DNA of 64,000 nt, taken from positions 79,313 to 143,312 of the forward strand of contig CAZDIP010000003.1 in NCBI GenBank assembly GCA_964505635.1. The letters run 5' to 3'. The position numbers and the translations under genes were made by a program. Positions 5,376 to 49,519 of the stretch are shown in pieces (the first letter of the stretch is position 1; every line of letters begins with the position of its first letter). The stretch is from an uncultured Candidatus Saccharibacteria bacterium (lineage in GTDB: Bacteria > Patescibacteriota > Doudnabacteria > UBA920). The notes under the pieces are model-generated. The model saw only the letters and a list, made by a program, of their open reading frames with translations. It made no database searches and had not been told where the DNA came from.

Positions 5376-5462
5376 GGAAATCCTCCTTCTCTCTCCCCGC
5401 TTTGTGCGGGTTGGTTATGGGGCGGCTGTCCTTCTCGACCACCCGCCCCGGAAAAACTGTGG

Positions 5463-17013: not shown

Positions 17014-17444
17014 AAAATATGTTGATATTTTTTTAAAAACTTAGGCAACTGAGAATGCAGCTGGTCTGTTGGGGGCAGAGAATTTAAATTAAACCATTTC
17101 ACTTCTTCAAATTTATGAGGTTCGCCGTTTTTAACCAGACTCGGCTCAACCAGCACTTTAAAGTCCAGGGTAATCCAATGGGTTTTTTCTCCTTTATATT
17201 CCCTAAAAACATCGCGAAAACCTAAAAATTCAGTTTCAACAACTTTGGTGCTGTATTCTTCCATAATTTCCTTGCGCAAAGTTTCTTCTACGCTGTCCAA
17301 AACCTCCAATCCGCCTCCGCCAATGTCCCACCTGCCGTGCTCATCCCGCGCGTTTTGCGAGCGCTTGGCCATAACAAAATTATTCTTGCCGTCATGGCAA
17401 AAATACACCACGCTTACCCCGACAAAATCTACGCCTTTTTGCAT
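17010..17444 (-). CDS. NUDIX hydrolase
   Basis: Nudix box GGGLEVLDSVEETLRKEIMEE. Confidence 0.85.
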   Translation of the reverse strand: MQKGVDFVGVSVVYFCHDGKNNFVMAKRSQNARDEHGRWDIGGGGLEVLDSVEETLRKEIMEEYSTKVVETEFLGFRDVFREYKGEKTHWITLDFKVLVEPSLVKNGEPHKFEEVKWFNLNSLPPTDQLHSQLPKFLKKYQHIL

Positions 17445-17461
17445 AATTTTAGTCTTGGAGT

Positions 17462-17998
17462 TTATTGAGAAGCTAAAATTTCATTGGTTCTCGACTTGGC
17501 TCGAACAATATTTATTACAATTGCGTACCCGCCAAATAAAGCTACCGAATAAAACATATCGCCCATAAGAGTTCCGCGTAAAAATGGCAAACCGTTTACA
17601 TAAGCCTGCGTAATTCCTGAAAAATTATGCGGGTAGTTGGAATACAAAAAGGCAAAATTGGTGACTAAGAAAAATACAGCGGAAGCAGCAAGTGAGGATC
17701 CGACTATTTTTGGCCATCGATGGGTATTTGAATGCTTAATCCAAACCCCAAAAAGTATTCCGGACAAATGCGAAGCATAAATTGCCAGCATCATCGGCCA
17801 GGACACAAAGCCAATAAATATGTCGCTTACAAGCCTTGCGGCCAAAGTTATACCCGCTGCTTTTTTCCATTCCATATTTGCGGCGGCAAAAATCGCCAAA
17901 GCCGTAATCGGCGCAAAGTTAGGGATATGAGGGATAAAACGGGAGATAACCGCTAAAATTATAACTAAATATATAATCATAAATTTTGCTTTATACAT
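17462..17998 (-). CDS. polytopic membrane protein, family unknown
   Basis: 178 aa with 5-6 predicted TM helices. Confidence 0.5.
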   Translation of the reverse strand: MYKAKFMIIYLVIILAVISRFIPHIPNFAPITALAIFAAANMEWKKAAGITLAARLVSDIFIGFVSWPMMLAIYASHLSGILFGVWIKHSNTHRWPKIVGSSLAASAVFFLVTNFAFLYSNYPHNFSGITQAYVNGLPFLRGTLMGDMFYSVALFGGYAIVINIVRAKSRTNEILASQ

Positions 17999-27407: not shown

Positions 27408-28610
27408 CTATTTCATTTTCTTTCTTATAAATGCCGGAATGTCCAGTTCTTCGTCGCTGTTCTCTTCAGCCGGAATTTCTATGGGCGCTATAGGCTGAAC
27501 GGGTTTTGGATTAAACAAAGGCTTGCGTGCTTCCACGGGCGGAGAAGGCGGACTTTTCGGTTCGCTAAAAATGGATTTTTGGGTATCTTGGTGCATTAGA
27601 ATTTGTCCCGGCAAAGGCCGCTTGCTGGACTCGTCAAAACCCGTGGCAATAACCGTAATGCGAACTTCCTCGCCCATTTCTTCATCAATAACCGCGCCAA
27701 ACTTAACCTTGGCATCCGGATCAATACTCTTGGTAATAACTTTGGCGGCTTCATCTATTTCAAACATGCCTAAATCCCTGCCGCCGGTTATATTAAACAA
27801 CACGCCCTTGGCGCCGTCAATAGCCAATTCAAGCAAAGGCGAATTAATAGCCAGACGGGCAGCTTCCTGAGCCCGGTTGTCTCCGCTGGCCCGGCCAATA
27901 CCCATAAGCGCGGTGCCGGCGTCCTGCATAATGCTGCGTACATCGGCAAAGTCCGCGTTAACTATTCCGTGGGTAGTGATTAAATCGGAAATACCGGAAA
28001 TGCCCTGGCGCAAAACTTCGTCCACGGTTTTAAACGCTTCTATTAAAGAAGTTTTTTTGTCTATAATCTGCAATATGCGGTCGTTGTGGATGGAAATTAT
28101 GGCGTCAACTTTGTCTTTTAAATTATCGTAACCTATTTCAGCTACCTCTTTTCTCTTGCTGCCTTCAAAGGTAAACGGCTTGGTAACCACGGCCACGGTT
28201 AGAATATTTTTGTTCTTGGCCAGTTCGGCTACAATAGGAGCCGCGCCCGTGCCCGTGCCGCCGCCAAGGCCGCAGGTTATAAATACCATGTCCGCGTTGT
28301 CAATTACTTCTTCCAGCTCCTCCACGCTTTCTTCCGCCGCCTGCCTTCCTAATTCAGGATTCATGCCGCTGCCCAAACCCTTGGTGGTGGTTTTACCAAT
28401 GTGAACTTTTTTGTCTGCCTGGTTATTGTGCAAAGCCTGGGCGTCCGTGTTAATGGCTATAAACTCCACGCCGCGAATGCCCAAAGCAGCCATTCGGTTA
28501 ACCGCGTTGGTGCCCGAGCCGCCAATACCTAAAACTTTAATCCTCGCAAATGTCTCTAATTTTGGTTTAACTTCCATATAATTTTTTTTACCCCCGTTTG
28601 AATTTTTCAT
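27408..28610 (-). CDS. ftsZ: cell division protein FtsZ
   Basis: [25 protein letters not shown]. By alignment to other FtsZ the real start may be the internal M at 28577. Confidence 0.95.
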
Positions 28611-28832: not shown

Positions 28833-31800
28833 CTACCTTCTCCTGCCAACCCTTCGCCTGGCTCTTGCGGGAGCCTGGATACTGCCAGAAGCATAATCTG
28901 CTATAACCGCTCTCCCCTCGCTCTCAAACCTGGCCAGAGTAGCAGGCTCAACTTTAATTTTTTGCCCTCGCCTTAGACCCATTCTCTGCGCGACTTCTGC
29001 CATTAAAAAAGGCTTACTTCTTAATACTACATCTACCAGCTCAAACGGCCTAATGTCGTAAACTGCCGCCAAATCATTTATTTGTTGGTCATTTAAGGTT
29101 TTGTTTTCCAAAGCGTCTTTCAAAGTTCTTCTGTTTACATCTTTAACCCACTTAGTATAGGCTACCGGCTCATTTCTTTGCCAGATGTCTTTAACAGCCG
29201 GGTCCTGGCTAAGTCTTAGCTGCATTAAAGCCATAAGCATTTTTTGGGGCGTGGTAGCGCCGGGAGCTATTATAGTTGCGGCCACAGGCCTAATATTTTC
29301 AACCTGCTCGGGCGTAAAGCCGTAAGATTCGTACAAACCAGTAACAAAATCATTAATTTTTAATTTTCGGTTTTTTACTTCACCTAAGCCTGTGCCGTAA
29401 ATAAACCGGGTTGGGTTTTGCTCAAAGCTATTTCTCAAATCCTGAGGCAAGATCTTTTCCTTATTCATATTTTGTAACCGCTCGCGCTTTGGCTTCCATT
29501 GCCCCAACTTTTTATTTAAATGATCCAGTCTTAAAATTTTTATACCTCTGACTTTTTTAGTACTTCCATCTGCATTTTTTATTTCTATCTCAGCAATTTC
29601 GTAATCTTTATACTTAACATACCTTGAATCATCGTTAATATCAGTAATAACATTACCAGCAGCATCTACCGGATCACCATCGTCGTTCGTTTCTATGCCC
29701 GCCAAACCTAACCACGCAGCAGCCCGTTGAATTTCCTGTGAATCAGCGGAAACTCCCCATTTTCTGGAAGTCTCATAAAACTCTCTTTGAAGCCTTTCAA
29801 TATTCAAATCTTCCGTGTCACCGGAAATTTGCTCGGCAAAAGACTTGCCATATACATTCATTTCACCCCATTCATTCCAAGCATTAGCCACAGGTTCGCC
29901 TTTTTTATACATACCTAATTCTCTTCTAGGGTCAGTCTCAAGCCAGGCTTTATTTTCATACTTAAACGGATTCCTATTTTTTGGCAACAAATTTTCACTC
30001 CCCCTTCGGCCGTTTCTTACCATATCTCCCAGTTCGGTGTCAGCCCCGGCATCTTTTTCCACCCTGGCTCCCCCAACTGCGCAATACGCACTGCCTCTAA
30101 TGGCGGTATTTCTCCCTTGTGTTATAACTTGTTTTTCACCGTTTCGTTTATCAACAACCAAATAGCCGGTATTTGGATCTACATACGGGACTTCTGTACC
30201 CTTATATCCATATCTATTCTGAGCATCCAAAAATTGGTCAAATCGGCTGGCCAAGAAAAAATTTGGCCACTTTTTATAGGTTTCATTATCATGGTCTATC
30301 CTTCCCACGAAACCGTCTAATCTTACTTCACTACCTGCACTGAAAGCCTGTTCGTTAGCATCAAATTCATCTATCATAATGCGTAAATATTTATCAGACA
30401 TATCTCTTAAATCAGCATCATTAGTCAAAATAAGAAAGTCTTTATTTTTTGGATTTTTTCTTGCCCCAGCCCTAATACAAGCCGCGTCATAAGCATATTT
30501 AATAATCCAGCCCCACATAGGGCGTTGTTCAAATTCTTTTTTCATAACCCGAATTTTTAGTTCAGGGTGTTTGACCTTATACTGTTTAATTACTTCTTCA
30601 GTATCATAAGCCTCAGGCATTCCATTTCGCACCCGCTGTTCAGCCCCATCCATTGTCTGGCCTTTTGCCGCCAACTCCGACTGAAGCTGTAACAATTTAT
30701 CTTTGGGGTGGTTTAAAAACAATATAACTTCAAATTCTTCAGATTTAACAGACCCGTTAGTAACCTGCTTTCTGTATTGCTCAAGTGTATGTTCTATTCC
30801 TTTACCCTCACCAAGAGTATAAACGGGTATACAAGCAACCGCCCTGCATTCATTTGTCATGCGTTCTCTTATGCCAGGCTGGCGCATTATTTCGGACAAA
30901 TCATTAAGGTAGTTTTGATCATTTTCAACCCGATTCTGCATATACCAAGAAAGTTCGTTTTCAAAATCCAAAACCGCCTGAGAGTTTTCTCTTAAAGTCG
31001 GAGACATTCGCTCAGTAAAAATTCTCCGTAACTCTGGGTTTTCTCTGCCATACCCGCCGTAAACAATATCCGTTCCTTCATCAGGAGCGGAACCCTTCAT
31101 CTCCTCAAGCCCCTTCCTTCGTCCCCTATACACCGGCACCGGCGGCACTACCACAAACGGCAAATGTTCTCCGCCTCCTTCCGGCGCGGTAATTTGAGTA
31201 ACAGGCGCGCTGACAATTTCCTTGGCAAAGCCCTGGGCTGTTGCCATGGTATGCCCGTCAAAACGCGCTTCCAAAAACCTAAACGGCAAGTTGCCGTCCT
31301 TAAGCTGGCTTTGGTCGGTAAACATTTTAGACCATTGTTCTCCCAAATATATCCTGCCTTTATTGTCCGCGCCTTCTATTAAATCGCTCAAACCTGACTT
31401 GTTCGCCCCTTCGGTGGGTATGACTGCGGCGCCAAAACGCTTAAAAAAACTGCCGTCGTTTATAGAAGCCTGTAGCTGCTCTTTTAAATGTTTTAATTTT
31501 TCAGCCACAAACTGGTTACCGCTCGCATCCTTATAGCCTTCCACCTCTCCAAAACCCGGCATGGTGTTTCCGCTTGCATCTATCTGCTTTTGAATATTTT
31601 GCAAAAAATTGTCAGCCATTTTGGAAATGTTTAAATAAACCTTGTCCCCGTGTTTTTCCAAATAGCCCATTTGCTGAGTGCCCTCAAACTCCAGCCACTT
31701 TTTGTGAATCTCGCTCCAAAACTGTCCGGGCTCGTCATGCCAATCCACTCTGGGATGCTCGCTTAAACCCGGATAAAGTTTTAAAGTTTCAGCCTTGTCT

Positions 31801-33770
31801 AAATTATGTATTCCGCTTAAAGTTTTGCCGCCCGGGGTTTCCGTTAAATTAAAGCCGTGTTTGGTAAGCCAGTCCTTGGCTTTGGTTGTCAAACTGCCGT
31901 CTGAGTTTAATTCCAGCCTGTCGCTTATTTTATTTCCCGAACCGTCCACTATATAATAGTCATTCGGGCTTGTGGTAGCGGCATCAGGCTTAAAGCTCAA
32001 ACCCGAGTCTAGTTTAAATTTATGCCCTCCCACTAAAACTTCACGCATAGTGCCGCCCAGCTTTACTCCCGGGGTTTCAAACAACTCTTCCGCCCGCCTT
32101 ACAGCCCCTTCTGCTAAAGTAGTTTTCTCGCCCACTGCCGCAAAGTGGGTTTTGTTCCGGACAAAATCAACGCCTCTTTCCAAAAGGCCTCTGGTTTCGT
32201 CATCCATCAACGCCCTGGCTTCCTGAACAGCCAAACCGAACGCTCCGCTCAAAAGCGCTGACTTAATAAAAGCTTTTCGCACTTTTTGTGTTTTTAATTC
32301 GGCAAAAATCTTGTTCTTAGCCTCTACCCCGCCCTCGCCTAAAAGCAAGGTGTCCCTATGGTCTGCCAAATAAATTCTAAAGTCTTCTTCAAAATTTCTG
32401 CCGTTAGCTTCGGTCCATTTTTTTAATGCTACTTTTGCCTTTGCGCGCATTATGTCTAGCTCTGTTTGCTCTTGGGCAGTCTTAGTTAAGTCCGAATAGC
32501 CTATTAAATCCACTTTGTACTTATTTTTCCTGTGTAAAAAGCCTTTGCGCTCTACCCCGGTGTCGGAAAGCTCAATTCTGGCTTCCAGGTCAGCTAAAAT
32601 CTGCATGGCGCTCGCAAATTCCGCCCTGGTTAAGTCTTTAGGTTCTTTACTTGCCAGTTTTTCAAACAACGAAACTTCCATTTCGCGTTTAATGTGCGCA
32701 GCCTTTTTAAACCCTATGCGCGACTCTTCCATCTCTTTCCTTCTTTCAGCTTTGTCTTGGTCAAATACTTTACCCTGCGCCATTTCCCTGGCATGCTGCG
32801 CGCGCTCTACTTCCAGTTTTCTGCTTTCCCGCATGGCGCCCACAGCGCCTGTCACCGCCATGCCCGCGCCGAAAACCGCGGCCGCTTTTTTTAGGCTCCC
32901 CTGCACGGCTTTGCCAGCCACGCTGTAAACCGCGGCCACTCCCACGGCCACGCTTGCCTCGTTTAAAACGCCGCCTGTCCACTTTTGAATGAAGTTGGTA
33001 ATTTTGTCCACCGCGTTTAACTGAGCCTCGGTCCTCACCGCGTCTTTTGCCCGGCCGACGACCACCTCAAAATGCTCATCCAGTTTTTGCAATGCCAAAG
33101 TATGCTGCAAGCCCTGCTCCACCTGTCTTTTTACTTCCTCCTTTGCCCACTTGGCTACCTCAAGCAAATTATCGGCAAACATTTTTCCCTTGCCAAACGC
33201 CTCGGGCGCGGCAGTCTTAACCCTGTCAAGTAATTTGTTTTTTTCCAGGTTAAAAGTTTCTTCGCTTATGCCGCCCTGGCTTTCTCCCCTGGCATAAGCT
33301 TTTATGAGGCCTAAAATTTCATTTTTAAAACTGCCGTCTGTAAGCTCCTGCCTGTGTTCGCCGGCCGCGGTATGGATAAATTCTTTTTCAAACTGCCTAC
33401 TTGCGGAAAATCTGTCGGTAATTGCCTGTACGGTGTTTTTATGGGCAATTTCCGCGTCCCTTCTCTGCGCTTCGCTTACGGTGTTGCCTCCTGCTTGCTT
33501 GTCTGAGTACAAGTTGCCGGAACTTCTTATTTCTTTCTCCGCATTATACCTGTCCAGCGTCTGCTTAAGCTCGCTGCGCTTCCATACAGTCTTGCCAAAA
33601 TGCTTTAGACGATTTAAAAAACCCTGAGGCTTTTGTGTTTCCTCGGTAGATTTTTCCGCGGCCACGTCTTTGGCGCGGCTTTCCGCTAAAGAGCTAATGT
33701 CAACAATGGCAATTCTTTTTTTGCCGCCGGTTAACTCTTGGTTTGACAGTCCCGAAAAACGCTCGGTCAT
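28833..33770 (-). CDS. giant protein (1645 aa) with an internal GT-A-like (family-2 glycosyltransferase-like) region. Function otherwise unknown.
   Basis: Uninterrupted 4.9-kb ORF. The segment ACIPVYTLGE...FEVILFLNHPKD...LILTNDADLRDMSD resembles GT2 motifs (DxD). Confidence 0.6.
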   Translation of the reverse strand: MTERFSGLSNQELTGGKKRIAIVDISSLAESRAKDVAAEKSTEETQKPQGFLNRLKHFGKTVWKRSELKQTLDRYNAEKEIRSSGNLYSDKQAGGNTVSEAQRRDAEIAHKNTVQAITDRFSASRQFEKEFIHTAAGEHRQELTDGSFKNEILGLIKAYARGESQGGISEETFNLEKNKLLDRVKTAAPEAFGKGKMFADNLLEVAKWAKEEVKRQVEQGLQHTLALQKLDEHFEVVVGRAKDAVRTEAQLNAVDKITNFIQKWTGGVLNEASVAVGVAAVYSVAGKAVQGSLKKAAAVFGAGMAVTGAVGAMRESRKLEVERAQHAREMAQGKVFDQDKAERRKEMEESRIGFKKAAHIKREMEVSLFEKLASKEPKDLTRAEFASAMQILADLEARIELSDTGVERKGFLHRKNKYKVDLIGYSDLTKTAQEQTELDIMRAKAKVALKKWTEANGRNFEEDFRIYLADHRDTLLLGEGGVEAKNKIFAELKTQKVRKAFIKSALLSGAFGLAVQEARALMDDETRGLLERGVDFVRNKTHFAAVGEKTTLAEGAVRRAEELFETPGVKLGGTMREVLVGGHKFKLDSGLSFKPDAATTSPNDYYIVDGSGNKISDRLELNSDGSLTTKAKDWLTKHGFNLTETPGGKTLSGIHNLDKAETLKLYPGLSEHPRVDWHDEPGQFWSEIHKKWLEFEGTQQMGYLEKHGDKVYLNISKMADNFLQNIQKQIDASGNTMPGFGEVEGYKDASGNQFVAEKLKHLKEQLQASINDGSFFKRFGAAVIPTEGANKSGLSDLIEGADNKGRIYLGEQWSKMFTDQSQLKDGNLPFRFLEARFDGHTMATAQGFAKEIVSAPVTQITAPEGGGEHLPFVVVPPVPVYRGRRKGLEEMKGSAPDEGTDIVYGGYGRENPELRRIFTERMSPTLRENSQAVLDFENELSWYMQNRVENDQNYLNDLSEIMRQPGIRERMTNECRAVACIPVYTLGEGKGIEHTLEQYRKQVTNGSVKSEEFEVILFLNHPKDKLLQLQSELAAKGQTMDGAEQRVRNGMPEAYDTEEVIKQYKVKHPELKIRVMKKEFEQRPMWGWIIKYAYDAACIRAGARKNPKNKDFLILTNDADLRDMSDKYLRIMIDEFDANEQAFSAGSEVRLDGFVGRIDHDNETYKKWPNFFLASRFDQFLDAQNRYGYKGTEVPYVDPNTGYLVVDKRNGEKQVITQGRNTAIRGSAYCAVGGARVEKDAGADTELGDMVRNGRRGSENLLPKNRNPFKYENKAWLETDPRRELGMYKKGEPVANAWNEWGEMNVYGKSFAEQISGDTEDLNIERLQREFYETSRKWGVSADSQEIQRAAAWLGLAGIETNDDGDPVDAAGNVITDINDDSRYVKYKDYEIAEIEIKNADGSTKKVRGIKILRLDHLNKKLGQWKPKRERLQNMNKEKILPQDLRNSFEQNPTRFIYGTGLGEVKNRKLKINDFVTGLYESYGFTPEQVENIRPVAATIIAPGATTPQKMLMALMQLRLSQDPAVKDIWQRNEPVAYTKWVKDVNRRTLKDALENKTLNDQQINDLAAVYDIRPFELVDVVLRSKPFLMAEVAQRMGLRRGQKIKVEPATLARFESEGRAVIADYASGSIQAPARARRRVGRRR

Positions 33771-33771
33771 A

Positions 33772-34089
33772 TTATTGGATTCCCAAATACGACTTCCTAA
33801 AATTGCTTAATTCTTCCTTAACCACTTCCTGCAAATTAGGGACATTCTGCTCGGTAAAGCTTGCTATTTGCTCTCCAGTGCCGTGCTTTAAAAGTTTTTC
33901 AAATTCTTCCAGTTTTTCGGGCGGCAAATGCGCCACAATCGCCGCGTTAACTATGTTTTCCACCCTGCCGGCCAAATCCTCTTTTATTTGAGCTAAAACT
34001 TCATCTTCCAAATTCTCAAACTTTTTTTCGGCAACCAAAAGTTCCACAAATTCTTTTATGTTCGGGTTGTTTAGCGCGCTTTGTGTCAT
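33772..34089 (-). CDS. hypothetical small protein, translationally coupled to the giant gene
   Basis: 105 aa. Its stop lies 2 nt from the giant-gene start. Confidence 0.5.
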   Translation of the reverse strand: MTQSALNNPNIKEFVELLVAEKKFENLEDEVLAQIKEDLAGRVENIVNAAIVAHLPPEKLEEFEKLLKHGTGEQIASFTEQNVPNLQEVVKEELSNFRKSYLGIQ

Positions 34090-34465: not shown

Positions 34466-34469
34466 AAAT

Positions 34470-34733
34470 TCATCCCTCACTTATTTTTGAAAGGCTTGAG
34501 CTAAGACGGTTTTTCAGATGTGTCATGCTTTGTCCAAAATTTTTCAATTTCTTTTCTCTTAGCCTGGCGTCTAATTCTGAAAAATATGCCTCATAATAAA
34601 CAAGTTTCCAAACATGTCCCTTAGTATAGCTAGATCTACCGCTATTATGTTCTATCATTCTTCTTTTTAAATCTATTGTAGATCCTAAATAGCTATCGCC
34701 AACTTCATTAATGATCAAATAAACATAAGTCAT
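34470..34733 (-). CDS. GIY-YIG nuclease-domain protein, second copy. Sits at the island border.
   Basis: YVYLIINEVGDSYLGSTIDLKRRMIEHNSG. Confidence 0.75.
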   Translation of the reverse strand: MTYVYLIINEVGDSYLGSTIDLKRRMIEHNSGRSSYTKGHVWKLVYYEAYFSELDARLREKKLKNFGQSMTHLKNRLSSSLSKISEG

Positions 34734-34773
34734 ATAAAAATTATATCAAAAATAAGTGAGGGATAAAAAGAAA

Positions 34774-34819
34774 AGAGCCCAGGGTCCAGTCGCAGATGCG
34801 AGTGGAAACCTTGGGCTCT
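34774..34819 (-). terminator. intrinsic terminator of island gene 1
   Basis: AGAGCCCAGGGT...ACCTTGGGCTCT. A 12-bp stem followed on the minus strand by UUUUCUUUUU. Confidence 0.65.
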
Positions 34820-34879
34820 TACAGCTTCTCGCCGCCTGGTGACAATTTAGTGCGTCATCCAGGGCGGCTGCTTGAAACG

Positions 34880-36250
34880 TTACGGCTGGGCCGGGGTCAT
34901 GACCGGCTTTGCGGCAGACGGCTGAGGCGCGGACTTGCCCTTCTGCGGCTTGGGCTCTTTGAGGGCGTTCTTCACGCCCCGGTTGCCCTTCGCCGCGAGC
35001 AACGCGCGCAGCGCCTCGGCCTTGTCCTTCACTTCGGCCACGGTCGCCGTGTTGGCGGCCATGTCCGTTCGCAACTTTCCAATCGCCGTCTTGTGCTCGT
35101 CCACATCCGTGCGGAGCGACGCTACCTGAGTCTTAACCCCCGAAACTTCATCAGCGGCCCAACCCCGAACCTGCGTCTCAGTCACACCACTACCACTTGT
35201 ACTTGCAGCGGACAACGCCTGAATGGCGTTGTTCATTGCGGTCATTGCGGTAGTAATCCGATCATCCGAAACAGCAGAGTCCACGGCTTCCTTCTTGATG
35301 CCGTTTCGACAAATCTTACCCGCTTCGGCAGAGCTACCCTTGCGGGCGCCCCATGCGCCCCTCCTCCAATCCGCGTCGGCGTTACAAAGACCTTCGATTG
35401 TCAATTTGAGAGTGGCGACTTGGCCTTCCAAACGGACAATGCGCGGATCAACAGTCGGGGGCGTAGGCGGAGCGGGTGCGGGTGCGGCGAGGATCTCGAT
35501 TTCAGAGGTGGTGGAGGCAAAACTGCCACCAACCGTCTCCAAAGCCTCAATCGTCCGCATACCGACCGTCGCAGCCACGTCCACCGCGACCATGATGTTG
35601 CTAACGCAGTCGCCGGCCTGGGAAGCACGAGACACGTCAACAACCACACCACTGCCCGAAACCCGAACGTTCTGGAGCGGGTCTTTGGTGCAGAAGGTCA
35701 TCGCCGTTGTGGTTCCAGCCTTCAACTGCGCCGGTTCCACCTTGGTGAAAGTCACCGCAGCGTCGGAACGCAGAGCGCCACCAGCACCGAGCAAGGCAAG
35801 GAGAGCGATGGCGTGAGTGATGCTGGGCGGCGTCTCGTGACCCCTGCGTCGACGACGGACAAACCACCATACCGCAAGAATCAAGGCCGAAACAACAATC
35901 AGCCACATCCAATTGCGACCAAACCAACCCCAGTCAATTTCAAAGACTGGTTCGGTCTTGTTGTCACGTTGGGTGTTGAGTTTGAGTTGGTCGACGAGCT
36001 TGTCGACTTTCGTCATAAGCTCGCCCATCTCGTCCCGGGTAGCGACCCCACCGAGTTTGGTTTCGATCGCCTCGAGCTTATCCGTCAAGACCTTCAGTTG
36101 CTCGGGCGTTGCGGCGGGCGCGGGGACTGCGGGCACGACGACGACGGGTTGGCCGGTTGCCGGCTTCCCGATCTGGGCGGTCGCGTTGTTTGTTACCATC
36201 GCCGCGAGGGCGACGGCGAGAGCGAACGAGAAAAACTTGGAGTTGCACAT
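34880..36250 (-). CDS. high-GC secreted/membrane coiled-coil protein (island gene 1)
   Basis: 456 aa. Signal peptide MCNSKFFSFALAVALAAMVTNNATAQ. TM WMWLIVVSALILAVWWFVRRRRR. PAPAPPTPPT linker. About 60% GC. The antisense ORF 34796-36274 is rejected. Confidence 0.7.
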   Translation of the reverse strand: MCNSKFFSFALAVALAAMVTNNATAQIGKPATGQPVVVVPAVPAPAATPEQLKVLTDKLEAIETKLGGVATRDEMGELMTKVDKLVDQLKLNTQRDNKTEPVFEIDWGWFGRNWMWLIVVSALILAVWWFVRRRRRGHETPPSITHAIALLALLGAGGALRSDAAVTFTKVEPAQLKAGTTTAMTFCTKDPLQNVRVSGSGVVVDVSRASQAGDCVSNIMVAVDVAATVGMRTIEALETVGGSFASTTSEIEILAAPAPAPPTPPTVDPRIVRLEGQVATLKLTIEGLCNADADWRRGAWGARKGSSAEAGKICRNGIKKEAVDSAVSDDRITTAMTAMNNAIQALSAASTSGSGVTETQVRGWAADEVSGVKTQVASLRTDVDEHKTAIGKLRTDMAANTATVAEVKDKAEALRALLAAKGNRGVKNALKEPKPQKGKSAPQPSAAKPVMTPAQP

Positions 36251-36711
36251 GTGTGTTTCCTTGTAGAAGTTTGAGAATTCGGTTATTGATGCATTTCAAA
36301 TACGATGCACCAAAAACAAACTTGCAAAAATTCGCCAAGGCCACTTTCGTGCCCTTTGCAAAAAAAGTTAAAGGTAATTTTATTCTTCGAGCTGGTCGAG
36401 AAGATAAAATTATCAATATGTTCTCCATAAAGTCGAACAATATTGATTTCAACCCTTTTCGCAAAGGACACTGCTTTCTGCGCAACTGCCTGCAAAAACT
36501 TATAAATAACGTTTCAAAAATTCCTCCAACGACTTCTCCGCTGTTAATTTTATAGCGAAGTCGTGCTCCGAAGCTCTCTTGTTTAAATCAAATGATAACA
36601 TTTAATTCAAACGGCCTCGTAACACATGTCGCATGTAAATTAATTAGCGAAGGAGTACTACAAATTGTTAAACAACTTGTCAAAATAAAGCTTTTGTACA
36701 GCAATAATTTT

Positions 36712-36752
36712 GACCTAATATTATAACAAATATTTTACTTATTGTCAATACT
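36712..36752 (-). promoter_or_regulatory. consensus sigma70-type promoter for island gene 1
   Basis: Minus strand: TTGACA (36744-36749), 18-nt spacer, TATAAT (36720-36725). Confidence 0.55.
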
Positions 36753-36881
36753 TTTAGCAAAATTAGCGCATATTTAAAACAAATAATGCATAAAGTCTTA
36801 TATTTATAACAAAAAATCAAGGTGGCGAGACTGGCTCAACCACCCTGACAGATGTTGTTTGCCTATAACTTCCTAACGCCT

Positions 36882-36931
36882 GTCATTCCGGACTTGCCTG
36901 CCCGCTTTTGGCGGGATCCGGAATCCAGTAT
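36882..36931. repeat. R2 hairpin element, copy 1
   Basis: GTCAT-TCCGGA-cttgcctgcccgcttttggcggga-TCCGGA-ATCCAGTAT. Confidence 0.5.
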
Positions 36932-36960
36932 TTTAGATAAGCTTAAGCTCTTTTGAATCG

Positions 36961-38136
36961 TTACGGCGTGGGCATTACAACCCGGGTCGGGAGCTTCACA
37001 AGCTCGCTCCCGGCAGGCCAAAAATACCACCCTGCGCCTGCGCCCACAACACACAACCCCTTCTCTACAATGTCACCCGCACCGTGGCGCTTAAAGCCCC
37101 CCAGACCCGGGATTAGCTGATACCCGCAGTTCAGAAGGGGTATCTTACTCCAGGTCGGTCGTCCCGGCTTTTTTGTAGGAGCATTCACTGTGACCACGAA
37201 ACTACAGGTCACTGTGTGCCCTTGGCTGTCCTTGCCGGTTACTCGAAAGCGGTGTGAGCCAGGTGCGAGGGTGCTAGGGTCAATATTGATAGCCGGAGTT
37301 CTGAGTCCGCCTTCAACACCTTCCTGTGTCCACTCAAGATCCGTGACCTCACCTTTGAAGTGAGGTATTACCTTGAACAGGGGTGTACTCGGATCTATAT
37401 TCGTCAGTTGTACAGACGACTCAAACCCCACGCACACCGCGCATTCGTGCGACGGCGGCTTGGCAATGGCCGTTGGCGGAGGCGGTGGCGGAAGGAATTG
37501 GCGATTTTTGAACAAAACCACCGACACCTTCCCGCTTTCCACTGCGACTCTGCTAGCCGAGGCGTAGATCATCTCCCACCCTTCGCTAGGAAGTTCACTA
37601 ATGTCATAGCTGCCTTGCGGCAACTCAACATCCGCGAACCCGCGATGATCCACCCGAACTCTGTGGTTTCCGACGCGGAACTCAAAAGGTAGCACATTGG
37701 ACATGCGACGGCTGTCGCTATCAAACTGCTCCTTCTGAATTCGTACGATTCCGGGGGGCGGAGGAGGAGGTGGCGGAGCGGGCTTGGGGGGGCAGCCTTT
37801 GCAGCGCGCCTGGTTGACGCACTGTTCCAGCACCACCCTCAAGCCGTCATCCGACAGCCAACCGAGTGTTCCAGCCGGAACGCGGTACGTGTTGCGGTCG
37901 TCCACCAACGAGTGGCGACCCTCAACACAATACTGCATGCCGATAAGCGACTCAGATCCGGAAAAAACGTAACGGCGCATTAACTTTCCTTGTGCCTTCA
38001 CGCTCTCCAATTCCGCGCCGCACCGTCTCATTGCCGTAGGCGAATCCTGCCGCGGTACCAAATTACGAGTCTGCTGCCCCAGCGCCAGGCCGGCGCCGAG
38101 GACAACGGAAATAAACCAGAAAACGATTCTAGACAT
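36961..38136 (-). CDS. high-GC secreted protein with polyproline linkers and a HYR/Ig-like C-terminal domain (island gene 2)
   Basis: CAGGAGGAGcaaaATG SD. Signal peptide MSRIVFWFISVVLGAGLA. Two PPPPPPP tracts. HTVTCSFVVTVNAPT is HYR-like. Confidence 0.7.
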   Translation of the reverse strand: MSRIVFWFISVVLGAGLALGQQTRNLVPRQDSPTAMRRCGAELESVKAQGKLMRRYVFSGSESLIGMQYCVEGRHSLVDDRNTYRVPAGTLGWLSDDGLRVVLEQCVNQARCKGCPPKPAPPPPPPPPGIVRIQKEQFDSDSRRMSNVLPFEFRVGNHRVRVDHRGFADVELPQGSYDISELPSEGWEMIYASASRVAVESGKVSVVLFKNRQFLPPPPPPTAIAKPPSHECAVCVGFESSVQLTNIDPSTPLFKVIPHFKGEVTDLEWTQEGVEGGLRTPAINIDPSTLAPGSHRFRVTGKDSQGHTVTCSFVVTVNAPTKKPGRPTWSKIPLLNCGYQLIPGLGGFKRHGAGDIVEKGLCVVGAGAGWYFWPAGSELVKLPTRVVMPTP

Positions 38137-38267
38137 TTTGCTCCTCCTGTGAGCTGTCTGAAAAACTCTAAAATCTTGCGGCCCAGCATGGGTCGCTGAC
38201 ATGTGCCAGCGGCTTGCCGGACACTGTTTAAAGCCATAAAAAGCCTTAAACAACGTACGGCAATTTG

Positions 38268-38305
38268 ACTATATATTATATCAATTTTTTACATAAATGT
38301 CAATA
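38268..38305 (-). promoter_or_regulatory. consensus promoter for island gene 2
   Basis: Minus strand: TTGACA (38298-38303), 17-nt spacer, TATAAT (38275-38280). Confidence 0.55.
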
Positions 38306-38340
38306 TTAATACTAAAATTAACTTATTTAAAAAGAAAAAA

Positions 38341-38373
38341 GCCTCCTACCCAAAACACGTCCGGGCAGGAGGC
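38341..38373 (-). terminator. intrinsic terminator of island gene 3
   Basis: GCCTCCTACCC...GGGCAGGAGGC, followed on the minus strand by UUUUUUCUUUUU. Confidence 0.65.
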
Positions 38374-38480
38374 GAATACCCAAGGCTGCAGCTCATACCT
38401 CAACGCGCGCTTATGCGCGCCTTGCGGGAGCACCTCAAAGCCTTGAGTTAGTTTAGATGAAAACGATTCAGCCGCCGAAC

Positions 38481-39656
38481 TTAGGAAACCACTTGTAGTC
38501 TCCTTTTTTTCCGATGGCCAAAATAGATCTTGTACGCCACCAAGGACGTGGTTCCTGGTACTTCTTCAACATAATGTGCCAGGCCGGCACTCTCTAAACA
38601 CTTCAAAATGGGCCTTAGCTGCCTCTTCGATGTAACCCTCTGATCAAAGGCCATAAAGCGGCCATCGGCGTCCTCTCGGAGATTCTGGGCCAGAAGAGCA
38701 CTGGCAAGCGAGTTTTCTTTGACAGCCTTAATCACGGTTGCCAAAAACAGCTCCTCGGGCGACATCTTCATGTACGCAATCTCCTCTTCCGAGAAAGAGG
38801 AGCTTGCGGGCACAATCTTCGGTGGACGCTCCTCACCGTCTTGCGAAGAAAGCGCCACCCAAATTATGCACACAAAGATCACCGCTACTAAGGCAACCGC
38901 CAAAAACACAAAAAGTTTTTCCGGAGCCGGATCACCCTTCCTGTCTTCTGGCGGTGGAGGAGGGATAAATACATCACCCATTTCCGGTGCAGTCTTCGGC
39001 AAAAGTCTAGACGCATACGCATCCGCAACGGGATCCTGTTCTCCTTCCTTTGCCTTCTCCGCTGAGTCCGCCGAAGCAGATCCTGGAACAGTCGGGGTCG
39101 AAGTGGATGTGGGGGCTGGTGTTGATGCTGGTGTCGGTACGGAAGCTGATGCGGGCGTCGGTATTTGGGCGCTCGCCGCCAGCTTATTATTCTTGGATGC
39201 GGATTCAGCCTTTGGCTTTGGCGCTGTGACCGTTGTGCTCACGAGGGGTTTTGCCACTTCTGTTGTTGGTTTGGGGTCAGAAGTTGGCGTTGCCACCTTT
39301 TCCTTGCCTTTGCCAAACAGTTGGTTCTCAACTGCGAGACAGCGAGCAAGCCGTTTCTGATCCACCTTGGCTCCGTCGGGCAGCCAGTAGATACGAGACT
39401 TCAGCCGCCGGATTTCAAACGTCGCCGGATTTTCGCAAGACAGCCGTGGGCCGTCTGGAGAGCCATGGCGCAATTCCGTGTAAAGATTAGGGTCAAGTCC
39501 GGCGTTTTTCAGAACGGCCATCGGGCCCCTCTTGGAGACCCCACCGTCTTCTTCAGCCCTGGCATACAACGTAATTTCGCGATCTTCGGCCTGCAGGCTT
39601 GCGCCCAGCAGGAAAAAGACCGCTAACGCGAACAGAAAGATTCTCTTCGTTTTCAT
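38481..39656 (-). CDS. high-GC single-pass membrane protein with a Pro/Thr/Ala/Ser-rich stalk (island gene 3)
   Basis: Signal peptide MKTKRIFLFALAVFFLLGASLQA. PT-rich low-complexity region. TM LFVFLAVALVAVIFVCIIWVAL. C-terminal cytoplasmic domain. Confidence 0.7.
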   Translation of the reverse strand: MKTKRIFLFALAVFFLLGASLQAEDREITLYARAEEDGGVSKRGPMAVLKNAGLDPNLYTELRHGSPDGPRLSCENPATFEIRRLKSRIYWLPDGAKVDQKRLARCLAVENQLFGKGKEKVATPTSDPKPTTEVAKPLVSTTVTAPKPKAESASKNNKLAASAQIPTPASASVPTPASTPAPTSTSTPTVPGSASADSAEKAKEGEQDPVADAYASRLLPKTAPEMGDVFIPPPPPEDRKGDPAPEKLFVFLAVALVAVIFVCIIWVALSSQDGEERPPKIVPASSSFSEEEIAYMKMSPEELFLATVIKAVKENSLASALLAQNLREDADGRFMAFDQRVTSKRQLRPILKCLESAGLAHYVEEVPGTTSLVAYKIYFGHRKKRRLQVVS

Positions 39657-39780
39657 CTCTCATTTCCTCTTTTGTATTTTTTCAAGAACTCAGCCAAAAA
39701 CAAAACTGCTGTTTTGGTCTGGTCGCTGTCCATAAAATAAAAACAACAATCAAACCAAAAGATATAACATATAACGAAAT

Positions 39781-39809
39781 ATTTTATCATAAATTTCACA
39801 TATTGTCAA
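39781..39809 (-). promoter_or_regulatory. promoter for island gene 3 (divergent partner)
   Basis: Minus strand: TTGACA (39804-39809), 17-nt spacer, TAAAAT (39781-39786). Confidence 0.5.
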
Positions 39810-39819
39810 TAATCTTTTA

Positions 39820-39848
39820 TTGACATATACAAGCAATTATTATATAAT
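39820..39848 (+). promoter_or_regulatory. consensus promoter for island gene 4
   Basis: TTGACA (39820-39825), 17-nt spacer, TATAAT (39843-39848). The two divergent -35 boxes lie in the inverted repeat TATTGTCAATAA/TTATTGACATA. Confidence 0.55.
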
Positions 39849-39987
39849 ATTTTGATTAAATATATTGTTCAGTTGGCAGTGCTGCCTGCTGATAGTATCT
39901 TTAAGCCCTCCTAACTAGGCGGGTAAACACGAAAACCAAAAACCCCAAACGCCTAAAAGCTTTGGGCAAGCCTTAAGGAGGCGCGCA

Positions 39988-40590
39988 ATGAAATGGTTAT
40001 TTTGGATTACGTTGGTGGTGTTTGTGTGGGTGGGTGGATGCCAGAGCCTGGCTCTGGGCCCGGTTGACTTGTTGGTTGAGCTGCTGGGGGTGGGACTCAT
40101 AACGCTTGCCAATGCGCTCTTGGCTTGGCTGATAATGTCTTGGCTGGCGAACTGGATGCAGGTTCAAAGTCCGAGGCTCGTAAAATCCTGGATTTTGTTC
40201 CTTCTCCTGTTAGGAATACCTCACTACTACGCCAGCTACAAGCTGGCGCCGCTCAAGCGTCAGTTCCGAACCATCGCGAGCGGCAGCGGGCAGGTGGAAG
40301 CCGGAGAACCCGGCGGCATCAACACCCTCAACTTTGGGGGGGAGTTAGACAAAATTGTCTTCCTCCGCATGCGGTGGCTGGCACAGCACCAGTACCTGCC
40401 AGCAGGTTCTGGTAAGTGGTGGGTGACTGACGGCTATTCGCCCAATCTGGCGATGTTGTACTTCCGGTTACCGCTTACAAAAAAGTGGTACGACAGAATG
40501 ATGGTCGACGCCATCGGCGCCGACTACTACAAACTCCTGGGCGAAAGCCCACCAGCAGAAACCAAAGCGCAGCCTAAAAAGCTGCGCTAA
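39988..40590 (+). CDS. high-GC polytopic membrane protein (island gene 4)
   Basis: AAGGAGG SD 6 nt before the ATG. 200 aa. Three N-terminal TM helices followed by a soluble domain. Confidence 0.7.
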   Translation: MKWLFWITLVVFVWVGGCQSLALGPVDLLVELLGVGLITLANALLAWLIMSWLANWMQVQSPRLVKSWILFLLLLGIPHYYASYKLAPLKRQFRTIASGSGQVEAGEPGGINTLNFGGELDKIVFLRMRWLAQHQYLPAGSGKWWVTDGYSPNLAMLYFRLPLTKKWYDRMMVDAIGADYYKLLGESPPAETKAQPKKLR

Positions 40591-40607
40591 GAACCAACAT
40601 ACAGCAA

Positions 40608-40644
40608 AGAGCCGCGCCCTTTTCGGAAGAAGGGTCGCGGCTTT
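40608..40644 (+). terminator. intrinsic terminator of island gene 4
   Basis: AGAGCCGCGCCCTT-TTCGGAAG-AAGGGTCGCGGCTTTT. Confidence 0.65.
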
Positions 40645-40701
40645 TAACTTGCACTTAATTTACTATTTTAAAACTAAAAATTGTACGGCGTAGATTACTT
40701 A

Positions 40702-41949
40702 TTATGGTAAAAAAGATTTAAACCAATTTTTCATTTTATTTAAATTTTGACTGAGGCCAAAGTTTTTAAACATTTTTCCAAACTCCGCTCCGGAGCCGCT
40801 GCCCAAACGGTTGCCCCATAAAATCAGCCCGACTGCTGTGGCAAAAGAAGGTTCATTTACTCTGTCAATGACCGAGTTTATATTCTGCGCCTGGCCTATG
40901 GTAACAGGCAAGCGCAAATGCTTTTTAGCGTATTCGGCAATACCGGGCATTTTGGCTCCCCCGCCTACCAACACAATGCCTGAGGGCAATTTGCCGTCGC
41001 GATTGATTTTTTTCAGCTCAGCGTTTATATGGTCAAAAATTTCCTCAAGCCTGGCCTGCATAATCTCCACCACCAAACCGCGGGTGGTAGACTGTTCTTC
41101 GGAAGCATCTATTTTTGACAAGTCTATTTCTTCGTTTTTGTCTATGGCTTTTAAGTCGGTATGCCCGAAGGCCAATTTTACTTTTTCCGCCGTCTCAATG
41201 CTGGTTCTAAGGCCAATAGCAATGTCGTTGGTTATATGCTGGCAGCCAATAGGCAAAACACTGGTATGCAGCAAATCCCCTTCTTCGTAAACAGCAATGC
41301 CGGTAGTGCCGGCTCCCAAGTCCACCACGCACACGCCCAAATCTTTTTGCCGCTTGTTAAGCACGCTTTCTGAAGCCGCACACACAGACAAAACCAGGTT
41401 GTCTATTTCCAGTCCGGCCTGCGCAATACAACGGCTTAAATTTCTCACAAACGGCAAACCGGCCTGCACAATAATAGTTTCCACTTCCAAACGGATGCCC
41501 GTCATGCCCAACGGATCTTTTATTCCACCCTGCCCGTCCAAAGTAAAAGTTTTAGGAAAAACGTGCAAAACTTCCTTGTTTTGCGGAATAGAAATGGCCT
41601 GACTGGCGTCTATGCAGCGCACAATGTCGCTTTCCGAAATCTCCCCGTCCGCCCGGCTAACGGCAATCACGCCATGGGAGTTAACCGAGGAAATATGGTT
41701 GCCGCCCACGGAAACATTGGCTGAAGTTATGGGTACGCCGGTCATCCTTTCCACTTTTTCCAAAGCAGAAGAAATGCCGGACACCGCCTCTTCCACGTCC
41801 ACAATCACGCCTTTGCGAATGCCGGTAGAAGGCACCTCGCTGACGCCAATAATATTTAAAGTCGGGGAATTCGGCGAAAGCTTGGCCAAAACCGCGCGCG
41901 CAAAAAAAGTGCCTATGTCCAAACCTACAATGTAATGTTCTTTTGCCAT
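40702..41949 (-). CDS. ftsA: cell division protein FtsA
   Basis: MAKEHYIVGLDIGT...VVDLGAGTT...LVGGGA actin-fold ATPase. Confidence 0.92.
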   Translation of the reverse strand: MAKEHYIVGLDIGTFFARAVLAKLSPNSPTLNIIGVSEVPSTGIRKGVIVDVEEAVSGISSALEKVERMTGVPITSANVSVGGNHISSVNSHGVIAVSRADGEISESDIVRCIDASQAISIPQNKEVLHVFPKTFTLDGQGGIKDPLGMTGIRLEVETIIVQAGLPFVRNLSRCIAQAGLEIDNLVLSVCAASESVLNKRQKDLGVCVVDLGAGTTGIAVYEEGDLLHTSVLPIGCQHITNDIAIGLRTSIETAEKVKLAFGHTDLKAIDKNEEIDLSKIDASEEQSTTRGLVVEIMQARLEEIFDHINAELKKINRDGKLPSGIVLVGGGAKMPGIAEYAKKHLRLPVTIGQAQNINSVIDRVNEPSFATAVGLILWGNRLGSGSGAEFGKMFKNFGLSQNLNKMKNWFKSFLP

Positions 41950-48700: not shown

Positions 48701-49261
48701 ATGAAACTTATAGTCGGTTTAGGCAACCCCGGGGAGAAATATAAACAAACCCGCCACAATGCTGGTTTTATGGCTTTGGATTTTTTACTAAATGACAATG
48801 ACGGATTTATGACCGCCAAGGAAAGCCATGAATTTAAATCTATAATGTATACCTGGCAATCCCAAAACGGTGAAAAAATTATTTTTTTAAAACCGCAGAC
48901 ATATATGAATGATTCCGGGCAGGCTTTAAAAGTAATTTGCAACTTTTATAAAATGAACCTGCCCCAGGAACTATTAGTTGTGCACGACGAGGCGGACTTG
49001 CCGTTCGGCAGCATCCGTTTAGCTCAATCCTCCTCGGCAGCCGGGCATAACGGAGTAAAAAGCATAATTGAAAATTTAGGTACCCAAAATTTCTTCCGCG
49101 TCCGCATTGGCATAGAAACCAGAACAGCTCCCAAAACCCCAAGCACAGACGAATTCGTCCTACAAAACTTTTCACCGGAAGAAGTAGTAAAACTGAACGC
49201 CGAAATTTTGCCCAAAGTTAAAGCCGAAATAGAAAAATTTATCGGCCTGACAAAAAAATAA
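48701..49261 (+). CDS. pth: peptidyl-tRNA hydrolase
   Basis: MKLIVGLGNPGEKYKQTRHNAGF. Confidence 0.92.
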   Translation: MKLIVGLGNPGEKYKQTRHNAGFMALDFLLNDNDGFMTAKESHEFKSIMYTWQSQNGEKIIFLKPQTYMNDSGQALKVICNFYKMNLPQELLVVHDEADLPFGSIRLAQSSSAAGHNGVKSIIENLGTQNFFRVRIGIETRTAPKTPSTDEFVLQNFSPEEVVKLNAEILPKVKAEIEKFIGLTKK

Positions 49262-49320: not shown

Positions 49321-49519
49321 GAAAGACTGCTGACAAACGCCAACGAATCTTTACTTGGTGCTAATGGCAAGTGTTAGGAGGGATGTCACCTACCTTCGCG
49401 ACTTGCAAATAGGGTGGTAAACAAAATAATTAATTCTTAATATATAATTATACACCCTTTTATGGGTTTTGTCAATCTCTTGTGCTCAATTTCCTTATAA
49501 ATAAGCATAAAATTACAAA

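Follow-up and report, generated by a model that had tools for sequence, protein, structure and literature searches.

Why should four GC-rich genes stand, sharply bounded, beside the cell division gene ftsA in a genome that is otherwise poor in G + C? The question was raised by a 64,000-nucleotide stretch of DNA (the window in the following) from an uncultured bacterium of the Doudnabacteria lineage (GenBank assembly GCA_964505635.1, positions 79,313 to 143,312 of the 143.6 kb contig CAZDIP010000003.1). Its G + C content (GC) is 42.6%, and its FtsA is 67-78% identical to that of metagenome-assembled genomes (MAGs) of Candidatus Doudnabacteria (Patescibacteria, or candidate phyla radiation, CPR). 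The block in question, 5.9 kb at 34765-40650, contains four open reading frames (ORF1-ORF4). An original prediction, made from the sequence of the window, had read it as a horizontally acquired surface module, with a high-GC organism, perhaps an actinobacterial host, as its possible donor. The surface-module idea was supported, a recent import of this kind was not. The block is probably the local copy of a clade-wide, strain-variable and strongly expressed surface-protein locus, which a subclade of the Doudnabacteria carries as an insertion between ftsA and ftsZ. The evidence consists of composition, synteny, clade restriction, an allele swap between strains, purifying selection, the architecture of the transcription units and a CnaB-like fold in one modelled product.

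Composition, position and clade distribution of the island

The four coding sequences (CDSs) have a GC of 0.60 (ORF1), 0.57 (ORF2), 0.54 (ORF3) and 0.55 (ORF4) and a GC at third codon positions (GC3) of 0.55-0.70 (ORF1 0.69, ORF4 0.70). The remaining 47 genes of the window lie at a GC of 0.33-0.48, pfkB (0.55) excepted. The GC-rich island of the original prediction is real, although the figure of about 60% fits ORF1 only, the CDSs ranging from 54 to 60% and the full 5.9-kb block averaging about 51%. Its borders are as abrupt as described: in 200-nt windows, GC is 0.33 before and 0.64 after the left border near 34.8 kb, and 0.53 before and 0.36 after the right border near 40.6 kb. The three spacers inside the island fall as low as 0.27-0.38, in agreement with the predicted alternation of AT-rich spacers and GC-rich genes. 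About half of the GC excess was accounted for by amino-acid composition (Ala, Pro, Val, Thr and Arg raised; Ile, Lys, Asn and Glu lowered), and the other half, approximately, by synonymous choice (+0.04 to +0.09, against a background with a standard deviation of 0.018 and a maximum of 0.030). Upon recomputation of GC, GC3 and relative synonymous codon usage (RSCU), which correlated with that of the host at r = 0.11, the block was found to deviate in composition and codon usage as a classical genomic island does. Since 15 other membrane or exported proteins elsewhere in the window are encoded at ordinary GC, the anomaly is tied to the locus and not to exported proteins generally. The sole other clear compositional outlier is the gene of a cytoplasmic pfkB-family sugar kinase at 60862-61818 (GC 0.55, GC3 0.61), with intermediate codon usage (r = 0.49 against the island, 0.35 against the background); it may be an ordinary horizontal acquisition.

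Alternating GC blocks of this kind could also be produced by an assembly or binning chimera, in which GC-rich fragments are joined into a low-GC contig. The probability of this was judged to be practically nil. An independent Logan contig (L001, from SRR16481186) matches 38443-40948 at 100% identity, through ORF3 and ORF4 and across the border to ftsA, and a contig of a sister strain from a second sample (L004, SRR11567540) runs through the end of ORF2, ORF1, the GIY-YIG gene, the DUF5663 gene and the start of a giant gene. More than 15 independent assemblies, from different studies, show the same alternation, and the spacers that carry host-type promoters are contiguous with the CDSs.

Within the window, ftsA (40702-41949, minus strand) borders the island on its right side and lies 12 kb from ftsZ (27408-28610, minus strand). 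Between the two genes stand ORF4 to ORF1, a GIY-YIG gene, a DUF5663 gene (33772-34089, minus strand; assigned by Pfam) and the gene of a 1645-aa orphan protein (28833-33770, minus strand) without a match in Pfam, NCBIfam, PHROG or PDB. For comparison, 80 loci anchored on FtsA were fetched over 10 kb. In nearly all relatives with an FtsA identity of at most 64%, as well as in the close relatives L015 and L019, the distance from ftsA to ftsZ is 100-400 bp; among the closest relatives (FtsA identity 67-78%), most have ftsZ displaced by 5-14 kb or outside the 10 kb fetched. Just 3' of ftsA, most close relatives whose sequence extends far enough carry segments of 52-69% GC, parted by spacers of about 30-36% GC, then DUF5663 and a gene of 900-1780 aa, and then ftsZ where the contig reaches it. 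The locus is thus fixed, with conserved flanks in more than 10 genomes: yqeY-ftsA on one side, DUF5663-giant(-ftsZ) on the other. The DUF5663 and giant genes together close most copies of the interval seen, and their order is repeated in L085, L087, L089, L093, L008 and L090. Since ftsZ directly follows ftsA in the more distant and in two of the close relatives, related genomes without the block do exist, and the interval appears to be an insertion made at the base of the subclade and not one private to the window genome.

The homologues of the island proteins were found to be restricted to the same clade. For ORF1, a single homologue was present in 5.8 billion clusters, namely P0009 of the sister strain, 51% identical and in the same position; a further one, in L009, was added by iterative search of the fetched loci. 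The 42-aa "representative" of the 90% cluster of ORF1 (P0002) was discarded: it bears no relation to ORF1, lies on an unrelated contig and entered the cluster as an artefact. ORF2 has 15 homologues with a common Cys-containing head and a partly common C-terminal module; those that could be placed on longer contigs (L007, L010, L020, L085, L087, L089, L090 and L093) all lie in the same interval, downstream of ftsA and ahead of DUF5663 and the giant genes. A back-translated scan with the trimmed alignment of the ORF2 head domain recovered three JGI metagenome loci only. For ORF3, five remote relatives were found in 1.84 billion representatives, by the head domain only (residues ~42-177), and two of them, P0028 and P0029, match the gene immediately 3' of ftsA in L005 and L010. 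All homologues of ORF1-3 are Doudnabacteria-type sequences; those on contigs that reach as far as the neighbouring genes occupy the same locus and are GC-rich there too.

These distributions bear on a recent horizontal acquisition, in which a surface module from a high-GC donor would have come later under host-type promoters. The strongly atypical composition and codon usage, the abrupt borders and the direct contact of ftsA and ftsZ in more distant relatives are all as such an import would leave them. It is nevertheless very unlikely, and on this point the original prediction failed: the nearest homologues of ORF1-3 are located at the same locus in low-GC sister genomes and have a similar GC, and no homologue from outside Doudnabacteria-type sequences was found in the 5.8 billion clusters or the 1.84 billion representatives (ORF4 was not searched there). 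At FtsA identities of 67-78% across the clade, a single old import should, moreover, have ameliorated. There is no tRNA gene beside the block (the nearest are at 3378 and 45486), no direct repeat brackets it, and no integrase, transposase or other mobility family occurred among the flanking and window proteins scanned.

The compositional anomaly follows a rule across the clade. ORFs of at least 120 aa were called in the ftsA-ftsZ interval of 17 genomes, and their GC3 was expressed as excess over the upstream housekeeping genes. The mean excess was +0.16 for ORFs with a signal-peptide-like or transmembrane (TM) segment and -0.03 for those without (Mann-Whitney p = 7e-9); 38 of the 43 GC3-rich interval ORFs were exported (Fisher p = 1e-8). 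A promoter matching the consensus in at least 11 of 12 positions was located within 500 nt upstream of 21 of 45 GC-rich genes and of 0 of 25 other interval genes (p = 2e-5); 15 of those 21 promoters were perfect, with a 17-nt spacer.

Codon usage showed the same regularity. For six species, RSCU correlated at r = 0.55-0.79 between islands and at r = 0.63-0.84 between flanks, whereas each island correlated with its own flanks at r = -0.41 to 0.13 only. Nucleotide frequencies at four-fold sites converge in the islands (A 0.10-0.18, C 0.25-0.37, G 0.29-0.38, T 0.15-0.26), while the host flanks range from 28% to 54% GC. Across the islands of the six species both G and C are raised at these sites; the sense-strand shift specific to G3 that was seen in the window was dropped as not general, other species raising C3 and G3 both. 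GC3 reaches 0.80 beside genes with a GC3 of 0.34, and the excess of the islands over the surrounding genome amounts to +10 to +37 points across species. The GC-richness is a locus-specific codon dialect, common to the islands of different species and independent of host composition. Translational selection for "highly expressed" codons was rejected as its cause: GroEL, like other housekeeping genes, keeps to the background dialect (GroEL against background r = 0.79, island against GroEL r = 0.16).

A block received once, long ago, by the ancestor of the subclade and passed on vertically since, with the GC kept by amino-acid constraint and slow amelioration only, would agree with an insertion that is common to the subclade and absent outside it, and with the share of about one half that amino-acid composition has in the GC excess. 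The other half is synonymous, however, as in the genes of GC3 0.80 next to genes of GC3 0.34; the island genes evolve faster than their neighbours and should ameliorate faster; and the four-fold sites converge across hosts of very different background. Given FtsA identities of 67-78% across the clade, synonymous sites should be saturated, and a one-off ancient import should have ameliorated. Some process maintains the dialect in place. With the allele data given below, an ancient transfer with vertical descent since was considered unlikely, less so than a recent import.

Alleles in two near-identical strains

The window and the sister-strain contig L004 are near-identical in the flanks of the island. 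Synonymous divergence (dS) is 0 in the GIY-YIG gene and 0.05 in the DUF5663 gene, the sequence leftward from the ORF1 terminator is 100% identical, and the spacer around the ORF1 promoter (36508-36808) is 98-99% identical. The middle of ORF1 and the end of ORF2 retain a nucleotide identity of 29-66%. The two ORF1 alleles (window and P0009) share 51% of their amino acids, with conserved ends and a diverged middle. For the middle, the proportion of synonymous differences (pS) is 0.73-0.74, that is saturated, and the ratio of non-synonymous to synonymous divergence (dN/dS) is 0.08-0.27; towards both termini dS is intermediate (0.2-0.3). As read by eye, the C-terminus of ORF2 in L004 belongs to a different module class, shared with P0012 of another species.

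By their dN/dS the ORF1 alleles are under purifying selection. Saturated dS and low dN/dS beside near-identical flanks point to old alleles that were moved by recombination into near-identical genomes, and not to products of recent hypermutation; this pair of strains thus presents an allele replacement at strain level. Alleles with saturated dS in near-identical strains are impossible by vertical descent, which speaks against the single ancient transfer considered above, as does the incongruence of ORF2 head distances with FtsA distances (Spearman -0.22 between head and FtsA identities, n = 15 non-independent pairs, i.e. no tracking).

Targeted hypermutation was weighed as another source of the variability, with a diversity-generating retroelement (DGR) or silent cassettes that donate sequence by gene conversion as the agent. 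DGRs are abundant in CPR genomes, and bAvd is an accessory protein of these elements; relatives carry a bAvd-like gene, which stands just behind ftsZ in L085 and L089 and behind hisS in L093. The divergence is gene-wide, though, with saturated synonymous sites and low dN/dS, whereas a DGR would vary a short region at adenines. Nowhere in the 64-kb window does an island CDS recur in the manner of a template repeat, variable region or silent cassette, and no Avd family occurred among the window proteins scanned (not every ORF was included in these scans, nor in that for reverse transcriptase). Adenine depletion on the sense strand, as a sign of a self-templated DGR-like process, was tried and rejected, the AT skew being inconsistent along ORF1. 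Hypermutation is accordingly an extremely improbable source, more so than a recent import.

Several findings weigh against a clade-wide, strain-variable surface-protein locus or against parts of this reading. The within-species comparison consists of one strain pair (window and L004), on which hypervariability at the population level rests; L093, L094 and L095 are 100% identical and were not usable as a second strain set. The absence of tracking between ORF2 heads and FtsA fits, weakly, either exchange or paralogy. Two close relatives, L015 and L019, are without the insertion, and in L018 the insert is present but not GC-rich. ORF4 is a singleton 90% cluster, for which the fetched loci, the viral contigs and the phage and plasmid collections yielded no relative (it was not run against the large protein databases). 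Signal peptides and TMs were called by crude hydropathy heuristics. GroEL combines a perfect promoter with normal codon usage, and the effects reported for GC-biased gene conversion are far below the +10 to +37 GC3 points of the islands.

Transcription units and their predicted products

Perfect sigma-70 consensus promoters (TTGACA-17-TATAAT) were found in the island at 36748-36720 (minus strand), 38303-38275 (minus strand) and 39820-39848 (plus strand), and a fourth, at 39809-39781 (minus strand), matches in 11 of 12 positions. The whole window contains six perfect sites, against 0.05 expected, and three of the six are within the island. The ORF1 promoter (36720-36748) has a TG upstream of its -10 box; that of ORF2 (38275-38303) lies about 130 nt 5' of the start codon. 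The promoters of ORF3 (11/12) and ORF4 (12/12) are divergent and stand back to back at 39781-39848, with both -35 boxes inside a near-perfect palindrome, ATATTGTCAATAA-tctt-TTATTGACATAT, at about 39800-39831, which bears out the predicted common inverted repeat. The promoters of ORF1, ORF2 and ORF3 are linked by an extended promoter similarity family (D1).

A hairpin followed by a T-run was present 3' of all four genes; the ORF3 terminator was found by scan, the other three were read off the sequence. The ORF1 terminator (34762-34820, minus strand), which forms the left border by the GIY-YIG gene, has a 12-bp stem, AAGAGCCCAGGG / CCTTGGGCTCTT, followed on the minus strand by TTCTTTTTAT. The terminator of ORF2 (36810-36847, minus strand) consists of a 7-bp stem, AGGGTGG / CCACCTT, and then GATTTTTTGT; the intrinsic terminator of ORF3 (38341-38373, minus strand) has a 14-pair stem, followed by TTTTTTCTTT. 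ORF4 ends at the right border (40611-40650, plus strand) with GCCGCGCCCTT...AAGGGTCGCGGC and then TTTTAACTT, about 60 nt from the stop of the convergent ftsA. Four separate promoter-gene-terminator units, with terminators at both borders, had been predicted and were recovered. Of the strong AGGAGG-type Shine-Dalgarno (SD) sequences claimed for all four genes, those of ORF2 (AGGAGGAG) and ORF4 (AAGGAGG) are exact and those of ORF1 (AAGGAA) and ORF3 (GAGGAA) weaker.

Phage "morons" are known from lambdoid prophages as inserted genes that bring their own promoter and terminator and deviate in base composition, and the island genes resemble them in that each has its own sigma-70 promoter, an intrinsic terminator and a composition unlike its neighbours. 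A prophage remnant, or morons brought by a temperate phage, would thus agree with the unit architecture and the composition, and a GIY-YIG nuclease gene adjoins the island. We nevertheless regard a phage origin as very improbable, about as much so as a recent import. Compared as DNA and as protein with phage records, IMG/VR contigs and plasmids, the block had no matches; against PHROG, ORF2-4 gave no significant match and ORF1 only weak coiled-coil-type matches (E ~3e-4); and no structural, integrase or repressor phage genes occurred among the interval proteins scanned. The island differs from morons, furthermore, in having neither prophage context nor phage homologues and in being fixed and syntenic across many species of a bacterial clade, not sporadic.

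ORF1 is preceded by a structured 5' leader of about 463 nt (36251-36713, minus strand; minimum free energy -154 kcal/mol, z = -9.0). It contains a long imperfect inverted repeat (36349-36385 / 36435-36471) and a dispersed palindromic repeat at 36375-36452, of which a diverged second copy lies at 17444-17520. A larger hairpin upstream of the ORF2 terminator (~36885-36935) is likewise a dispersed repeat (36877-36928, copy at 51767-51818). Dispersed palindromic repeats account at least partly for the strong fold of the leader, and an Rfam scan of the spacers for riboswitches or known RNAs gave zero matches at E <= 1. One of the two palindromes of the ORF1/ORF2 spacer is also copied in the island of a relative (L085, 7427-7470); they resemble dispersed hairpins of the repetitive extragenic palindrome (REP) or miniature inverted-repeat transposable element (MITE) type.

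An N-terminal signal-like hydrophobic segment was recognised by hydropathy in 4/4 island proteins, TMs in ORF1 and ORF3, and two to three hydrophobic helices in ORF4, as expected for the predicted set of four exported or membrane proteins. ORF1 (34880-36250, minus strand; 456 aa, TM called by hydropathy) consists of a signal peptide, a helical coiled-coil-like segment, a TM (113-131), a second hydrophobic helix, a beta-sandwich (~175-254), a PAPAPPTPP linker, long helices (270-421) and a basic Pro-rich tail. Its AlphaFold2 (AF2) model, made from a two-sequence alignment, has a predicted local distance difference test score (pLDDT) of 37 and is usable for secondary structure only.

ORF2 (36961-38136, minus strand; 391 aa) begins with a signal peptide and a conserved Cys-containing head (~22-115), continues with a poly-Pro tract and a CnaB-like beta-sandwich (~121-220), and ends, after a second poly-Pro tract, with another beta domain and a Gly/Ala-rich hydrophobic C-terminus. 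Residues 121-220 were modelled at pLDDT 88-98, so that the stalk domain is a confidently modelled CnaB-like fold. The prediction of an HYR/Ig-like protein with two polyproline tracts was right as to the tracts, which flank the beta-sandwich; HYR or another Pfam domain was not found above threshold.

ORF3 (38481-39656, minus strand; 391 aa) is, by hydropathy and composition, a type-I membrane protein with a signal peptide, a conserved head of about 100 aa, a stalk (150-206) rich in Pro, Thr, Ala and Ser (PTAS), a TM (249-267) and a cytoplasmic tail of about 120 aa, in accordance with the PT-rich stalk and single TM that had been described. ORF4 (39988-40590, plus strand; 200 aa) is, by hydropathy, a small membrane protein with an N-terminal signal or lipobox-like segment (VWVGGC), one or two hydrophobic helices besides, and a soluble C-terminal part of about 110 aa. 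That the ORFs are coding is indicated by the dN/dS of the ORF1 alleles, by the conservation of the ORF2 head at protein level among homologues and by the folding of ORF2 121-220.

Searches with ORF1-4 against Pfam, NCBIfam and PHROGs returned sub-threshold coiled-coil or proline-rich noise only, and a sequence search of the PDB, made with ORF3 and the neighbouring giant protein only, returned nothing. Typically, a signal peptide leads into a small head, which a stalk, either Pro/Thr/Ala-rich or CnaB-like, connects with a membrane anchor; this build, together with the consensus promoters, fits abundant surface proteins. From the signal peptides, TMs, stalk regions and the CnaB-like fold we infer that the products are surface-exposed, and the consensus promoters suggest that the genes are highly expressed. 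A role of the locus in adhesion or as phage receptor would be in line with these features.

Some neighbouring elements were recorded alongside. The GIY-YIG unit (34469-34767, minus strand) comprises an 87-aa nuclease gene (34470-34733; Pfam GIY-YIG E = 4e-14), framed by a perfect inverted repeat of 19 nt, TCAAAAATAAGTGAGGGAT (34472-34490 and 34746-34764); as a unit of about 300 bp it resembles a miniature mobile or homing element, and among the fetched loci it was present in the window and the sister strain L004 only. The giant protein measures 1420-1780 aa in the window, L085, L087, L089, L093 and L008 and is always paired with DUF5663; the pair sits between the GC-rich island and ftsZ, parting the usually adjacent ftsA and ftsZ. 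Low-GC genes with a PaaX_M-like domain are scattered among the GC-rich cassettes of L085 (3954-4502, with a weak Cas2-like match as well) and L087 (6273-6932) and may be regulators; the window has no equivalent. Matches to 23S_rRNA_IVP were obtained for L085 18856-19194 and L089 19748-20104, both directly after ftsZ, and L093 2822-3178, after hisS; the genes of L085 and L089 match bAvd too. None of the three has a counterpart among the window genes scanned.

Perfect promoters also occur in the window outside the island. One lies upstream of the GroEL gene. Another, at 6521-6493 (minus strand), is followed by an immediate hairpin and about 800 nt without an ORF. Downstream of it (region 4700-6521, minus strand) are four small hydrophobic ORFs of ~37-70 aa, some with strong SDs, at 50-57% GC; the region, for which Rfam gave nothing above threshold, thus forms a second GC-rich membrane-peptide patch with a strong promoter. 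The site at 49447-49475 (minus strand) faces the 3' end of the gene at 48701-49261 on the plus strand; no minus-strand gene is evident behind the site, which could drive an antisense or small RNA.

Origin of the codon dialect and comparison with known systems

For the surface-protein locus we propose the following working order. Each gene is a separate unit with a consensus sigma-70 promoter, an SD sequence and its own terminator, and would be strongly transcribed; every product would be directed to the membrane or the exterior of the cell. Spacers and flanks, the former AT-rich and both conserved, may serve as homology anchors, by which the GC-rich coding cassettes, as old and deeply diverged alleles, would be swapped by homologous recombination among otherwise near-identical genomes. 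Such a pattern would be expected from frequency-dependent selection on the exposed proteins, via host-cell attachment specificity, phage receptors or both. The alleles would form one recombining pool, held GC-rich by a recombination-associated GC-biased process.

This last step is our best guess as to how the GC-richness is maintained: the evidence for recombination and the joint rise of G and C fit a recombination-linked GC-biased conversion. Recombining genes with a higher GC3 have been reported in bacteria, as have GC-biased conversion effects of a few GC3 points (PMC4450053), and the islands likewise raise G and C at four-fold sites; their effect of +10 to +37 GC3 points is much larger than the genome-wide reports. 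Selection on mRNA properties is also possible as a cause of the dialect, and so is a hidden pool or vector rich in GC. GroEL speaks against a simple link with expression: with its perfect promoter and normal codons, it indicates that expression level alone does not explain the dialect. A bolder reading, which we hold to be possible but doubtful, is that of a private surface-gene pool at one fixed site between ftsA and ftsZ, kept across species in a common codon dialect 10-37 GC3 points above the genome, regardless of host composition, which would imply an ongoing gene-specific compositional driver. Such a driver could be GC-biased conversion, linked to recombination and of exceptional strength, at a hyper-recombining antigenic locus, or else a vector, so far unrecognised, by which cassettes are carried from one set of conserved AT-rich promoter and terminator spacers to another.

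Flexible genomic islands are usually AT-richer than their genome. With these hypervariable islands, which encode exposed structures such as variable surface antigens and phage receptors, the locus shares a fixed position, conserved flanks, deeply diverged alleles brought by homologous recombination into near-identical strains, products predicted to be exported or at the surface, and an atypical composition. Unlike them, it is far GC-richer than its genome, its anomaly is kept across species as a shared dialect, and it is composed entirely of monocistronic units with consensus promoters, belongs to undescribed families and splits ftsA from ftsZ. A hypervariable surface-protein island, unusual in being conserved, GC-rich, of a shared dialect and built of monocistronic units, is thus the best-supported classification. 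Recombination hot regions with an enrichment of surface proteins have been documented (PMC4866539), and in Nanoarchaeota, which are ultra-small symbionts, raised non-synonymous variation in surface proteins has been reported (PMC6142677). The hypervariable PTD-repeat gene of Gracilibacteria (PMC6851277) is a different phenomenon from the island. No published description of the locus or of DUF5663 was found.

The modelled fold of ORF2 is a CnaB-type beta-sandwich, like that of CnaB adhesins and sortase pilins (TIE protein 6fwv, GBS52 3phs, RrgB, SpaA, SdrD). It differs from these in the lack of a Cna_B Pfam match, a sequence identity of 8-21%, the lack of an LPXTG motif and of a nearby sortase, and a head unrelated to known ligand-binding domains; its C-terminus, ...LVKLPTRVVMPTP, does not show the succession of LPXTG, hydrophobic stretch and basic tail.

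The locus cautions that a compositional island is not always a recent horizontal transfer. With two codon dialects within a few hundred bases, stable across species, it offers an unusually clean natural case that bears on the debate whether mutation bias, selection or biased gene conversion determines GC content; a private GC-rich pool with an ongoing driver, if true, would not be ordinary horizontal gene transfer followed by amelioration. Host recognition, attachment and phage escape in CPR bacteria are little understood beyond a few cultivated Saccharibacteria. For these processes the locus provides a short, well-delimited list of candidates, namely strain-variable surface proteins that are probably very highly expressed, one of them with an adhesin-type stalk. 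If the private pool exists, its cassettes would be the determinants by which these episymbionts recognise host cells or are recognised by phages.

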